A stretch of 64,000 nt of DNA from Candidatus Scatovivens sp. GTDB taxonomy: Bacteria > Bacillota > Clostridia > TANB77 > CAG-508. Where the stretch lies: positions 321 through 64,320 of the forward strand of contig JBJFFD010000044.1 of assembly GCA_051891335.1 (NCBI GenBank), written 5' to 3'. The notes under the pieces are model-generated. The model was not told where the DNA came from. It ran no database searches and worked only from the letters and a program-made list of their open reading frames with translations. Made by a program: the position numbers and the translations under genes. Numbering within the stretch: the stretch's first letter is position 1; the number at the start of each line of letters is the position of its first letter. This document shows, piece after piece, positions 35,039 through 38,730 of the stretch.

Positions 35039-36826
35039 ATGTTAACTTCTTTAAATAGTATTGTAATTTTAATAATTACTTGTTTATTTATTAATATTTT
35101 ATTGGCTTATTCATTAAGTACTAAAAAGCAGACTGATATAAGAAAATCTTTTTCTTATATTTGTTTGACTATGTTAATATGGTTACTAGGATTAATTATA
35201 CAAGCAACTTTTAGCTCTAGACTAAATGTTTCTCCAATATATTTTGACTATTTTGTATATATTGGCACTTGTTTAAGCCCTGTTGCTTTTTATAATTTTT
35301 CAAAGACTTTTTCTAGCACAAAATATAAACTAAACAAAAAACTACTTATCATACCAATACTATCATTATTAATATTATGGACAAATGATTTTCACCATCT
35401 TTTTTTCAAAGAGTATTCCATTAATATAAATGAAGGTGTAGTAGGAAATTACTTTTATATACATACAATTTATACATATTTACTATTTTGTTTAGCTTTT
35501 ATAAACCTAATAAAATACTCAGTCAAAAATGCTGGTGTATTTTCAAAACAAGCTATATTATTTTTATTAGGAAGTTTATTTCCTATTATTGCTAATATAT
35601 TTGGAACTTTAGGAATAATTCCAATATCAATTTATGTAACTCCTATTTGTTTTGCATTTACAATTATCTTTTACTCTTTTGCAATATTTAAATTTGATTT
35701 TTTGAAGGTAACACCTATTGCTTTGCAAAGAGTTGTTGATAGGATGTCTGATAGTTATGTTGTTGTTAATGAAGATAATGTTATTACAGATTTTAATAAA
35801 ACTTTTTTAGATACTTTTAAATTAAAATCTCAAAATATAAGAAATAAGAATATATCAAGTTTCCTTAATAAAGCTGATACTACTAGTATTACTAAAAAGT
35901 TAGATACAGTAAAAAGAACAAATAAACAAATATCTTTTAGAAAAGTTTTTAGTTCTATGAATAAAATTTTTACTATTGAAATTTCTTCTATAATAGATAA
36001 AAAGAACTATTTAGGAACTTTAATTCTTTTTAAAGATATAACTCAGCATGAATTAGATAAAAAGAAAATTGAAGAAAATCAGGATATTCTTGTTGAAAAA
36101 GAACGTCTTGCATCTTTAGGACAAATGATTGGTGGTATTGCTCACAACTTAAAAACTCCTATTTTCTCTGTTTCTGGAGGCATTGTTGCTTTAGATGATT
36201 TAATTGATGAAGTTGATTCTACTGTTGGAGATCCAGAAATAACTGGAGAAGATATTCATGATATGGCAAGAGAAATGAGAGATTGGACTTCAAAAATTCA
36301 GTCTTATATGTCTTATATGTCTGATGTTATAACTGCAGTTAAGGGTCAAGCTGTTGCATTTTCAGAAAGTCAAACAGATTTATTTAACGTAGATGAAGTA
36401 TTTAAGCGTGTTGATATTTTAATGGCTCATGAATTTAAGCATTCTTTAGTTAAATTAGTTATTAAAAATAATACTCCTAATTCTATTTCAATTAAGGGAA
36501 ATATTAATGCTCTTGTTCAAGTTATTAATAATTTATTAACAAATTCATTAGATGCTTATAATGGTGAACAACTTGGTGACATTGAACTAATCTCTGAATA
36601 CAAAGATAGAAATGTAATAATTTCTGTTAAAGATCATGGTCCAGGGCTTCCAGAAACAGTTAAAGAAAAACTTTTCAAAGAGATGATTACAACTAAAGGA
36701 AAAAATGGAACTGGTTTAGGTTTGTTCATGTCTTATTCTAATATAAAAGCGCATTTTAGCGGAACAATGACATTTGAAAGCGAACCTGGTCATGGAACAA
36801 CATTTAATATAATAATACCTGTATAG
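35039..36826 (+). CDS. Sensor histidine kinase with N-terminal 7TM domain, PAS-like region, HisKA and HATPase_c
   Basis: Six to seven hydrophobic helices in the first ~215 aa. H-box GGIAHNLKTPI. N and G boxes NNLLTNSLDA, DHGPGL, GTGLGL. The ATG directly follows the NRPS stop (TAAATG). Confidence 0.9.
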   Translation: MLTSLNSIVILIITCLFINILLAYSLSTKKQTDIRKSFSYICLTMLIWLLGLIIQATFSSRLNVSPIYFDYFVYIGTCLSPVAFYNFSKTFSSTKYKLNKKLLIIPILSLLILWTNDFHHLFFKEYSININEGVVGNYFYIHTIYTYLLFCLAFINLIKYSVKNAGVFSKQAILFLLGSLFPIIANIFGTLGIIPISIYVTPICFAFTIIFYSFAIFKFDFLKVTPIALQRVVDRMSDSYVVVNEDNVITDFNKTFLDTFKLKSQNIRNKNISSFLNKADTTSITKKLDTVKRTNKQISFRKVFSSMNKIFTIEISSIIDKKNYLGTLILFKDITQHELDKKKIEENQDILVEKERLASLGQMIGGIAHNLKTPIFSVSGGIVALDDLIDEVDSTVGDPEITGEDIHDMAREMRDWTSKIQSYMSYMSDVITAVKGQAVAFSESQTDLFNVDEVFKRVDILMAHEFKHSLVKLVIKNNTPNSISIKGNINALVQVINNLLTNSLDAYNGEQLGDIELISEYKDRNVIISVKDHGPGLPETVKEKLFKEMITTKGKNGTGLGLFMSYSNIKAHFSGTMTFESEPGHGTTFNIIIPV

Positions 36827-37056
36827 ATTTGATATAAATTTATATTGTAGGGGCGGACGACTCTGTCCGCCCTTTAAAATTATTATTCCATGTATACGAT
36901 TTGTCATAATTAAATATTCATAAATTTCTGCATTGTTATAAATTCCTTTTGTTTTATCGTTTTTCGGGCGGACAGGATCGTCCGCCCCTACAACACATAA
37001 AATTTTTTTGTTGTTTTGTATTTTGGGGAATGCGGGCGATTAAAATCGCCCCTACA
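36474..37056 (+). repeat. Left copy of the direct repeat flanking the Fic gene (kinase 3' end plus downstream palindrome region)
   Basis: Aligns with 38283-38720, apart from a 198-bp segment (about 36504-36701) missing from the right copy and one extra palindrome unit in the right copy. Confidence 0.85.
36848..37056. repeat. Cluster of GC-rich palindromic units (GGGCGGAC-N6-GTCCGCCC; GGGCGAT-N4-ATCGCCC)
   Basis: Stems at 36851-36872, 36966-36987 and 37034-37051, standing out in an otherwise AT-rich context. Confidence 0.85.
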
Positions 37057-37057
37057 T

Positions 37058-38128
37058 CTATTCTCTATCAGTATCTTTTATGATTTTAAATAATCTCTCA
37101 TTTCTATATATTCTTTCTCTTCCTATCTTCTCAGATGTTAAAATACCTAATTCTACCAAACTGTCTAAATATTTTTGAGCTGTCTTATCTGAAACTCCTA
37201 ACTGTTTTTGAATATATGGTATCTTAGTATAAAACTCGAAAAATAATGCATCTAAAAGTTCTTTTGAATATATTTTAGTTTTATTTCTCAATTCATATTT
37301 CATATTAATTATTTCATTACGTATCTTGTCTATTGTTCCAATTGTTTCCTCTGCCATTTCTTCTATTCCTACTAAAATATAAATTATCCAATCCTCAAAG
37401 TTTCCACTCTCTCTTGTTTCTTGAAATAATTTATAATATTCTGATTTATTTCTAATTATATATTTGCTTAAATATAAAATTGGAGTATCTATCAAATCTT
37501 TTAGTATAAGATATAATATATTTATTATTCTTCCAGTCCTTCCGTTTCCATCATAGAATGGATGAATAGATTCAAATTGATAATGAATTATTGCTAATTT
37601 TATTAGTGGGTCTACCATATCATCATCATTATTAATATAATCTTCTAAATTTTTCATATATTTTAAAATTTCTTCTTTTTCTTGTGGTGGCGTATAAATC
37701 ACTTCATCTGTTGTAGCATTTTTTATAACAGTTCCTAAGGTTGTTCTTATTCCTGCTTGATTATGTTCTAGCTTCTCTTGTATTTTAACAATAATATTAG
37801 TATTAATTATATGTTTTTCTTTTACTAGATTATAGCCTTCCCATATTGCCGCCCTATAATCAGCAACTTCTTTTGCTGCTAAACTTGCATCATTAGTTCT
37901 AACCATAGCTTTATAAATTTCATCATGTGTGGTAACTATATTTTCTATGCTAGAACTCGTTTTAGCTTCATTAATCATTATTGCATTTATTAGTATACTT
38001 TGATTTGGCATAGTCTGTGCTATACCTTTTAGTTCTGCCAAAGCTCTACTTGTTCTTGATAATTGTTTTAATATTCTTTTGGTTTCAATATCTTTTTTTA
38101 ATGGTAGCATTTCTAATTTATTATTCAT
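37058..38128 (-). CDS. Fic-family protein (AMPylase type) with N-terminal inhibitory helix and C-terminal winged-helix domain
   Basis: Fic motif HPFYDGNGRTGR. Inhibitory (S/T)xxxE(G/N) motif SSSIEN upstream of the core, i.e. a class II arrangement. 356 aa. Confidence 0.9.
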   Translation of the reverse strand: MNNKLEMLPLKKDIETKRILKQLSRTSRALAELKGIAQTMPNQSILINAIMINEAKTSSSIENIVTTHDEIYKAMVRTNDASLAAKEVADYRAAIWEGYNLVKEKHIINTNIIVKIQEKLEHNQAGIRTTLGTVIKNATTDEVIYTPPQEKEEILKYMKNLEDYINNDDDMVDPLIKLAIIHYQFESIHPFYDGNGRTGRIINILYLILKDLIDTPILYLSKYIIRNKSEYYKLFQETRESGNFEDWIIYILVGIEEMAEETIGTIDKIRNEIINMKYELRNKTKIYSKELLDALFFEFYTKIPYIQKQLGVSDKTAQKYLDSLVELGILTSEKIGRERIYRNERLFKIIKDTDRE

Positions 38129-38144
38129 TTTTTCACCTTCTTTT

Positions 38145-38255
38145 ATAAATACCGGAAATATTTCGTTTTTTCTTCCTGTATTTGTATGATAACAGAAAAA
38201 ATTTCCGTTGTCAATAAAATACCGGAAATTTTCTCGTTTTTCTTCCTGTATTGTA
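38145..38255. repeat. Two ~40-bp direct repeats upstream of the Fic gene
   Basis: ATAAATACCGGAAATATTTCGTTTTTTCTTCCTGTATTTGTA (38145-38186) and ATAAAATACCGGAAATTTTCTCGTTTTTCTTCCTGTATTGTA (38215-38255). Confidence 0.8.
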
Positions 38256-38282
38256 AAAACACCGTAAATTCAAAACTTGAAA

Positions 38283-38439
38283 TAATATTCCTGATTCTAT
38301 TTCAATTAAAGGAAAGAGCGGAACTGTTTTAGGTTTATTCATGTCTTATTCTAATATAAAAGCGCATTTTAGCGGAACAATGACATTTGAAAGCGAACCT
38401 GGTCATGGAACAACATTTAATATAATAATACCTGTATAG
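38283..38439 (+). pseudogene. Relic of the histidine-kinase 3' end (start-less, with an internal in-frame 198-bp deletion)
   Basis: Reads NIPDSISIKGKSGTVLGLFMSYSNIKAHFSGTMTFESEPGHGTTFNIIIPV*, matching kinase residues encoded at 36474-36503 joined to 36702-36826. Confidence 0.8.
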
Positions 38440-38459
38440 ATTTGATATAAATTTATATT

Positions 38460-38730
38460 GTAGGGGCGGACGACTCTGTCCGCCCTTTAAAATTATTATT
38501 CCATGTATACGATTTGTCATAATTAAATATTCATAAATTTCTGCATTATTATAAATTCCTTTTGTTTTATCGTTTTTCGGGCAGACAGGGTCGTCTGCCC
38601 CTACATGTTCTGGTAATTCTCTTTTCTTTTTTTCGGGCGGACAGGGTCGTCCGCCCCTACAACACATAAAAATTTTTTGTTGTTTTGTATTTTTTGGAAT
38701 GCGGGCGATTAAAATTGCCCATACGGGCAG
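38460..38730. repeat. Second cluster of GC-rich palindromic units (four units)
   Basis: Stems at 38463-38484, 38579-38600 (variant GGGCAGAC...GTCTGCCC), 38635-38656 and 38703-38720. Confidence 0.85.

Follow-up and report, generated by a model that had tools for sequence, protein, structure and literature searches.

We analysed a 64-kilobase (kb) stretch of DNA from Candidatus Scatovivens sp. (GenBank assembly GCA_051891335.1, contig JBJFFD010000044.1, positions 321 to 64,320), which has a GC content of ~25% and is hereafter called the window; all coordinates are window positions unless a contig is named. A histidine kinase gene and a response regulator gene in this window are separated by a minus-strand gene, fic, whose predicted product is a SoFic-type class II Fic protein. 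On both sides of fic lies a direct copy of the kinase 3' end together with the spacer that follows it (Table 1). The parts are all known; the arrangement they form is that of a SoFic defence gene in a conserved two-component locus with a long target duplication.

Table 1. Features of the kinase-fic-regulator locus, in window positions (aa, amino acids; bp, base pairs; nt, nucleotides; ORF, open reading frame; REP, repetitive extragenic palindrome; REPIN, REP doublet forming a hairpin; BIME, bacterial interspersed mosaic element)
Feature	Position	Strand	Description and basis
Histidine kinase gene	35039-36826	+	intact, 595 aa; HisKA_7TM, PAS and HATPase_c (Pfam)
Left repeat copy, 590 bp	36466-37055	+	last 361 bp of the kinase ORF and 229-bp spacer; repeat search, pairwise alignment
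Hairpin P1	36847-36872	+	GTAG and GC-rich hairpin GGGCGGAC-N6-GTCCGCCC; motif and repeat search
Hairpin P2	36966-36991	-	inverted relative to P1; 28-nt arms, 93 nt apart; REPIN/BIME-like doublet
Hairpin P3	37034-37055	-	GTAG and GGGCGATTTTAATCGCCC; repeat ends and insert begins at its foot, 2 nt from the fic stop codon
Insert	37056-38279		self-contained module
fic, SoFic-type class II	37058-38128	-	356 aa; Fic_N, Fic and SoFic-like C-terminal winged helix (Pfam)
fic promoter/operator region	38129-38279	-	repeat search and promoter scan
Right repeat copy, 445 bp	38280-38724		beyond minus-strand fic; repeat search, pairwise alignment
Kinase 3'-end relic	38280-38439	+	corresponds to 36466-36492 joined to 36696-36826; 201-bp in-frame deletion
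Right spacer copy	38440-38724	+	runs on into native region upstream of the regulator
Right-copy REP-like unit	38460-38485	+	
Right-copy REP-like unit, extra	38579-38604	-	
Right-copy REP-like unit	38635-38660	-	
Hairpin P3'	ends 38724		degenerate; in right spacer copy
Promoter-like site of the regulator	38749-38777	+	TTGACT, 17 nt, GATAAT; outside the duplication; kept in L094
Response regulator	38834-39911	+	receiver and HD-GYP-type HD_5 domain; ORF, Pfam

On its left side, the left copy runs on unbroken into the intact kinase gene. The register from left to right copy is +1814 for 36466-36492, +1613 for 36696-36959 and +1669 for 36960-37055, and in this alignment the copies are identical at 375 of 389 bases (96.4%), with 14 mismatches. 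Self-BLAST of the window returned a 307-bp core of the repeat at E=9e-144, and a chance origin of the repeat is excluded. Two length differences set the copies apart. The right copy is without 201 bp of the kinase end, which is 67 codons and in frame, and it has an additional 56-bp unit (38573-38628) that holds one further hairpin and is a gain or loss of one REP unit. The reading frame of the kinase fragment in the right copy has a stop codon immediately upstream and no start codon, and its conserved G2-box glycine is altered to valine (GTGLGL to GTVLGL). Compared with the kinase gene it carries ~5 non-synonymous and 2-3 synonymous changes.

A first-pass annotation of the window, made from the sequence and its predicted ORFs, had described a direct repeat with a copy of the kinase end around fic, one extra palindrome unit in the right copy, and a right-hand kinase fragment that is a relic. 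These descriptions stand, with the edges of the repeat slightly shifted to the positions in Table 1. The same annotation had given the deletion as 198 bp (66 codons) between two AARGGAAA microhomologies, and here a correction is needed. A gap of 201 bp is the only good fit, leaving 7 mismatches in 66 nt as against 18-28 for gaps of 195, 198 or 204 bp. The breakpoint in the right copy does lie inside the AARGGAAA motifs, but the actual microhomology is TAA.

The mismatches between the copies are unevenly placed. Two fall in the 27-nt island to the left of the deletion and five within 28 nt to its right; none falls in 36725-36934, a run of 210 bp; one lies 25 nt before the 56-bp indel, and the other six are in the last 96 nt. 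A mismatch-free run of 210 bp has a probability of P=2e-4 under uniform placement. The identical core sits between the 201-bp and 56-bp heterologies, and mismatches crowd within ~30 nt of them, so that copy edges that are 6-11% diverged enclose a core without differences. Such a pattern would be expected from conversion tracts that need flanking homology. Since the identical core is bounded by the two indels, it indicates that the copies probably already recombine, which makes loss of fic plausible. A crossover in the core would delete fic and leave an intact kinase, spacer and regulator, in line with the first-pass proposal that the cassette can be lost by recombination between its repeats.

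The structure also has support from a second assembly. A Logan contig of 1428 bp (L001, run SRR30616851) is 100% identical to 36940-38367 and spans the junction of spacer and fic, the junction of fic promoter and relic, and the deletion junction within the relic. On each side it reaches exactly 30 nt further than the final base by which the copies can be told apart (36970, 38337), which fits a k=31 graph with both versions of the repeat in the sample. The first-pass annotation had named an assembly artefact as one way in which the duplication might be unreal. In its fullest form this would be a mixed population in which the chromosome carries kinase, spacer and regulator, while fic and the relic belong to another molecule or strain and have been threaded in through the identical core. 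That core (210-235 bp) is longer than the k-mer and probably longer than the reads, and the Logan contigs break at it, where the de Bruijn graph fits both phasings. Yet both novel junctions and the relic deletion junction are real sequence, reproduced in an independent contig; a 1.6-kb circle without a replication gene would persist only as an excision product of the integrated form; and 14 substitutions and two indels between the copies point to distinct loci, not to one collapsed repeat. We consider an artefact extremely improbable.

Comparison with relatives gives the direction of the change. A scan of one genome per species yielded 80 loci with the synteny synthetase, kinase, regulator, DUF975 and ABC-F. 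The first-pass annotation had proposed looking at relatives that lack fic, and all 80 species (80/80) proved to be of this kind, with fic between kinase and regulator in none (0/80). The gap between the two genes is at most 700 bp in 42 of the 55 species whose regulator is co-oriented, and in the other 13 of 55 it holds 0.8-6 kb of other genes, namely a block of four genes that includes one for a J-domain protein, a gene for a 180-aa or a 364-aa protein, or a hydrolase gene with an insertion sequence (IS). The closest relatives (L094, L095 and L097, at ~83% DNA identity) have a single kinase 3' end, and in L094, which lacks fic at this site and has just one kinase end, the kinase is followed by a 655-bp spacer and then by the regulator. 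The end of the right copy in the window and the sequence after it align with the region upstream of the L094 regulator and are orthologous to it. Homology of the left copy to L094 stops at ...CGCCCCTAC, after which comes the fic stop codon. Because both copies share the states of the window lineage when compared with L094 and L095, the duplication post-dates that split. From these alignments fic is a lineage-specific insertion, the duplication arose in this lineage, and there are only two novel junctions.

The gap between kinase and regulator varies in other ways among the relatives. In a subclade (L002, L006, L014, L023, L026, L034, L047) a conserved minus-strand gap block encodes J-domain, 188-aa, 159-aa membrane and 440-aa proteins. 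We considered the spacer as a dedicated integration hot spot and rejected the idea: the variation is at the level of species, has built up over long times, and has no fic among it.

The spacer that was duplicated is itself distinctive. Its palindromes are GTAG-tagged REP-like hairpins, with six units in the window that are extragenic and have GTAG at one end of a short GC-rich palindrome. This is how GTAG-tagged REP elements have been defined (PMC3733652), in a text in which Firmicutes and Clostridia have 0 occurrences. A search with the hairpin motif found five occurrences in the window, all at the kinase-regulator locus, and 0 in 100 shuffles. P1 pairs with P2 in a single-strand DNA fold (z=-5.9). 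An Rfam search of the window gave no match. A 30-nt identical copy of P1 lies after the kinase gene of L095, and similar GTAG hairpins occur in the spacers of L002, L010, L028, L047 and L095 (in L095 at 2374, 2454, 11874 and 11973). The units of the relatives keep GTAGGGG, and their stems differ between species by compensated changes. Since relatives have similar hairpins in their spacers, the spacer is native DNA and was not carried in by fic. The units resemble REP, BIME and REPIN elements in their GTAG-led GC-rich palindromes, extragenic position, inverted pairs and compensated stem variation. Those elements are characterised by a high genome copy number and an associated RAYT transposase; the 64 kb covered here has six units at one locus.

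The fic product matches the PADLOC SoFic model at E=4.4e-111 over model positions 14-359 of 361, the SoFic crystal structure (PDB 3EQX) at E=3.5e-70, and the Pfam SoFic-like_C domain at E=8e-18. Its catalytic motif, HPFYDGNGRTGR, fits HxFx(D/E)GNGRxxR (HPFx[D/E]GNGRxxR in stricter form) and aligns with the active site of a solved adenylyltransferase. The inhibitory motif (S/T)xxxE(G/N) is present as S-S-S-I-E-N, N-terminal and inside Fic_N. Catalytic motif and inhibitory helix are thus both intact, as the first-pass annotation had stated, and the protein is a full-length member of the SoFic family of class II Fic AMP-transferases. The three-domain layout, the two motifs and the full-length profile match are the same as in the SoFic defence system (Shewanella SoFic, E. 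coli Sofic), and an anti-phage role may be proposed for Fic by homology. As for possible targets, a recent preprint (bioRxiv 10.64898/2026.07.09.737422) reports EF-Tu as a target of the Shewanella SoFic enzyme.

Two differences from known SoFic genes, the second of them tentative, stand beside these likenesses. SoFic homologues elsewhere are found on islands with integrases, beside transposases and in integron-type cassettes, as expected of defence genes, whereas the copy in the window is a lone insert in a core two-component locus, bracketed by a 590-bp host duplication. The E. coli gene has been reported to have a 47-aa downstream antitoxin, AS1 (PMC12249575). The window module ends 2 nt after the stop codon and thus appears to bring no small downstream ORF with it. 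The sole minus-strand ORF downstream of fic (36716-36907, 63 aa) lies in duplicated host DNA.

The insert itself is a self-contained module, made up of a promoter studded with putative operators and a full-length fic. One end of it begins 2 nt after the fic stop codon and the other lies inside an operator unit. The best sigma-70-like match in the region (11/12) is the fic promoter, with a -35 element TTGACA (38214-38209), a spacing of 17 nt, a -10 element TATCAT (38191-38186) and an extended TG. Two 36-bp units (38147-38182 and 38217-38252) flank this promoter, and each is an inverted repeat ACMGGAA-N15-TTCCGGT (AATACCGGAA-N15-TTCCGGTATT). The array, with its 35-bp phasing, is kept upstream of fic homologues in other genomes (L082, 7843-8010; L089, 2642-2816; L086, ~7800-7990), and one unit of the SoFic operator array overlaps the -35/-10 hexamers. 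We infer that Fic probably regulates its own gene through these repeats, which would serve as operators bound by its C-terminal winged helix.

The same module is found in other surroundings. More than 100 Fic-like proteins with 77-93% identity occur in metagenomes, and the best kinase homologues outside the contig of the window are at most 82% identical. Phage and plasmid collections held only homologues of at most 52% identity. Genomic contexts were retrieved for four Fic homologues: one lies between uncharacterised core-like genes (L082-85), one on an island that also carries restriction genes, tyrosine integrases and a primase (L086-88), one beside a Mu-type transposase and a metallo-beta-lactamase-fold gene (L089-93), and one beside a 401-aa gene of no relation (L096). 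For the first three of these contexts, the stretch homologous to the window in DNA extends from 38268/9 to 37057/9 and is 81-85% identical; for the fourth it extends from 38245 to 37059 and is 88.6% identical. The segment shared with these contexts is the DNA between the two repeat copies.

Three further readings of the module were tried and set aside. The first-pass annotation had suggested the kinase and regulator next to fic as possible targets of its product, which would make them functionally coupled to it. This is unsupported, as the same promoter and fic module occurs in at least four unrelated neighbourhoods, the gene belongs by its sequence to the SoFic defence family, and no relative has fic at this site. 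For annotation, a caution follows that Fic here is to be treated as cargo, not as a partner of the adjacent two-component system. The module as a site-specific element with fixed ends was rejected as well. The BLAST edges looked sharp, but from one context to the next the operator array is cut by the 5' end at a different unit; since the number of operator units varies by context, and the array in the window is cut in a degenerate unit, the module has no fixed, site-specific ends. An integron cassette at this site does not fit either, as the hairpins start with GTAG, there are no RYYYAAC/GTTRRRY attC cores and no integrase, and the flanks are conserved core genes.

We lean, with modest confidence, towards an older, single insertion of the SoFic module with target duplication, after which the relic would have decayed while gene conversion went on. 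In such a history the 1.2-kb module would have inserted once, in this lineage only and in antisense orientation, into the REP-rich spacer between kinase and regulator, and the same event would have duplicated ~590 bp of the target, comprising the kinase 3' end and the spacer. Because the target would have been duplicated in the same event, both flanking genes would be left whole and only two junctions would be new. The redundant right kinase fragment would then have decayed by losing the 201 bp at the TAA microhomology, by the Gly-to-Val change in the G2 box, and by the difference of one REP unit, while RecA-type gene conversion would have held the middle 210-260 bp of the copies free of differences. 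Through this homology a crossover could also delete fic and restore the kinase-spacer-regulator order exactly. Duplication followed by replacement, which the first-pass annotation had offered as an option, is not established and needs more events than a single insertion-duplication. Three routes fit the two novel junctions and the 590-bp duplication, and these are a single-crossover circle, a long staggered cut, and template switching.

The first route is the Campbell integration of a circular DNA that the first-pass annotation had put forward. The topology does fit, as it has two novel junctions, but any insertion with target duplication fits it too, and no circular donor, recombinase or same-species empty site was found. 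A version with a diverged donor deserves separate weighing. In it, a circularised fragment from a related strain, carrying fic with the kinase end and spacer, would have entered by one crossover with the resident kinase end; donor DNA would then make up the relic at its left edge and the left copy at its right edge, and the core would be the crossover or heteroduplex tract. Such an event would account exactly for the topology (two novel junctions, a 5'-truncated relic and the intact gene opposite) and for edges that are 6-11% diverged around an identical core. It would also explain, better than a staggered cut, the distant SoFic loci L123 and L111, which share the architecture with much longer host duplications. 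The donor, however, must already have had fic abutting the same spacer, by which the problem of origin is moved and not solved, and a donor homologous on both sides would normally enter by a clean double crossover that leaves no duplication. The coincidence of the clean core with both indel boundaries is not predicted, and the changes in the relic, with the Gly-to-Val substitution and the excess of non-synonymous over synonymous differences, resemble decay and not a functional donor allele. Neither circle nor donor was found. We judge integration from a diverged donor to be possible though unlikely. The split of synonymous and non-synonymous changes, or polarity from an outgroup, was considered as a means to separate Campbell integration from decay in situ, and was dropped for having too few sites.

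The locus does share with Campbell-type and other insertion-duplication elements that carry the 3' end of a gene the host direct repeats, the intact target gene, the displaced relic and the reversibility. It differs from Campbell-type elements in that its cargo is one 1.2-kb module, that the insert lacks a replicon, an integrase and an attachment core, and that there is no known circular donor.

The other two routes involve a long target duplication of the IS1634/IS1549 kind, some other ~590-nt staggered break, or a template switch at a REP hairpin, with fic either inserted directly or later replacing an IS. There is a precedent at the very same spacer. In L060 (10663-13691) a perfect direct duplication of 549 bp surrounds a 1931-bp IS, which codes for a DDE_Tnp_1 transposase of 584 aa and has terminal inverted repeats with the ends C..TTTGACA; to judge from these features, this is clearly a long target duplication of the IS1634 type. 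IS1634 and IS1549 have been reported to make direct repeats of 8-514 bp (PMC2266710), and a direct duplication of several hundred bp around an insertion is what the window has in common with them. Template switching is hinted at only by where the target broke at the left junction, a point that coincides exactly with the foot of REP unit P3. Unlike IS1634 and IS1549, the insert in the window has neither transposase nor inverted ends, and no transposase, inverted repeats or IS remnant lies between the repeats. A tblastn search with the L060 transposase as query found no related transposase in the window, and further events would be required for fic to have taken the place of an IS precisely. We hold an origin by one of these mechanisms to be very unlikely. 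The idea that the insert is itself an IS or a transposase-less IS derivative was rejected for its want of inverted ends and transposase.

Several points weigh against the single insertion with target duplication that we favour. Nothing that would name the mechanism came to light, neither a donor or circle nor a recombinase or inverted repeats. A crossover between alleles that are 6-10% diverged, by Campbell integration from another strain, followed by heteroduplex repair, could give a similar core. An alternative phasing, with an insert-free chromosome and a 1.6-kb circle, is compatible with the sequence taken alone, because the identical core exceeds short-read length. The search for an insert-free strain of this species gave none: the kinase homologues end at the identity given above, and look-ups with the exact proteins returned two short Logan contigs from one run. 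With no empty site from the same species, the empty site is reconstructed from relatives at ~83% identity. Lastly, the case for a defence function of Fic is one of homology.

About 100 loci with SoFic homologues were inspected for flanking repeats, a small sample that was not designed as a test. Several of these loci, such as L154 and L160, have attC-like repeats on both sides and are integron cassettes. Environmental SoFic homologues in L154 (726-2197), L157 (1151-2727) and L160 (889-2854) are flanked by repeats of 126-139 bp that are 87-93% identical; those of L154 and L160 start with GCTAAC and end with GTTAGC or GTTGGC, and look like attC sites of chromosomal integron cassettes.

Three SoFic loci (L123, L111 and L134) have direct repeats of at least 150 bp that flank the gene and are not attC-like. 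The relic in L123 (2243-4991, 7558-7685) consists of 217 bp of a metallophosphoesterase 5' end fused to 129 bp of an SMC-like ATPase gene, with an internal deletion, and the order there is relic, ParE/Phd, SoFic, and the intact phosphoesterase-ATPase gene pair. L111 (1744-7136) has copies of a galU relic and vanZ that separate NERD, SoFic, a HEPN/MNT pair and ToxN. The repeat in L134 (168-5334) is non-coding, 217 bp long, and present in three copies. These distant SoFic homologues are set in toxin/defence clusters where copied pieces of adjacent host genes stand between the modules, an architecture that the window shares. Control loci amounting to 1.25 Mb contained as comparable repeats only synthetase module repeats and the IS duplication of L060. 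These cases hint that insertion with duplicated host flanks may recur for such cargo. A broader proposal, which we advance as speculation and think quite doubtful, is that single-gene defence or toxin modules such as SoFic spread and stack as 'homology-armed cassettes', with no recombinase of their own. A duplicated piece of the landing site would bracket each cassette, ordinary recombination would loop it out as a circle with one arm, and a single crossover would bring it into a related genome again; the window would then be an instance of this, and L123 and L111 older or serial ones.

If the favoured history is right, the locus is a clean and datable case of a one-gene anti-phage system that entered a core operon of uncultured gut Clostridia without an integrase or transposase, and it shows how such a fic insert may remain reversible. 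If the architecture of flanking duplications is recurrent for defence genes, it would amount to a route of recombinase-free mobility that is absent from current models of islands and hot spots.

The neighbourhood of the insertion is otherwise that of the relatives. Directly before the kinase gene lies a non-ribosomal peptide synthetase gene of 2490 aa, and 3' of the response regulator come a DUF975 gene and then an ABC-F gene. The regulator is spread over two frames (38822-39472 and 39453-39911). It is broken by a 1-nt insertion, a C at 39449 (GGT-C-GGATTG), at a place where relatives read IGGLFHDIGK. The frameshift is also present in an independent Logan contig (L098, run SRR30616851), which is an exact match to 38997-41000. 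In L094, the closest relative, the regulator (5939-6991) is damaged in another way, by an in-frame stop at codon 139. It thus seems that two lineages are losing the regulator independently, with the kinase still intact.

Two other repeats in the window were recorded. A 231-bp internal repeat, 87% identical (28895-29125 and 32003-32233), lies inside the synthetase gene and is the similarity expected between the two modules of the synthetase. A non-coding tandem duplication at 3731-4748, between genes for 141-aa and 241-aa proteins, consists of two ~510-bp units that are 92% identical. Each of these units has a small hydrophobic ORF on the minus strand, 44-55 aa long (...VVMFMVKVILF.ILSLMFSLTLNVALTAVLYKNWVDKQLHK), which possibly encodes a small membrane toxin.

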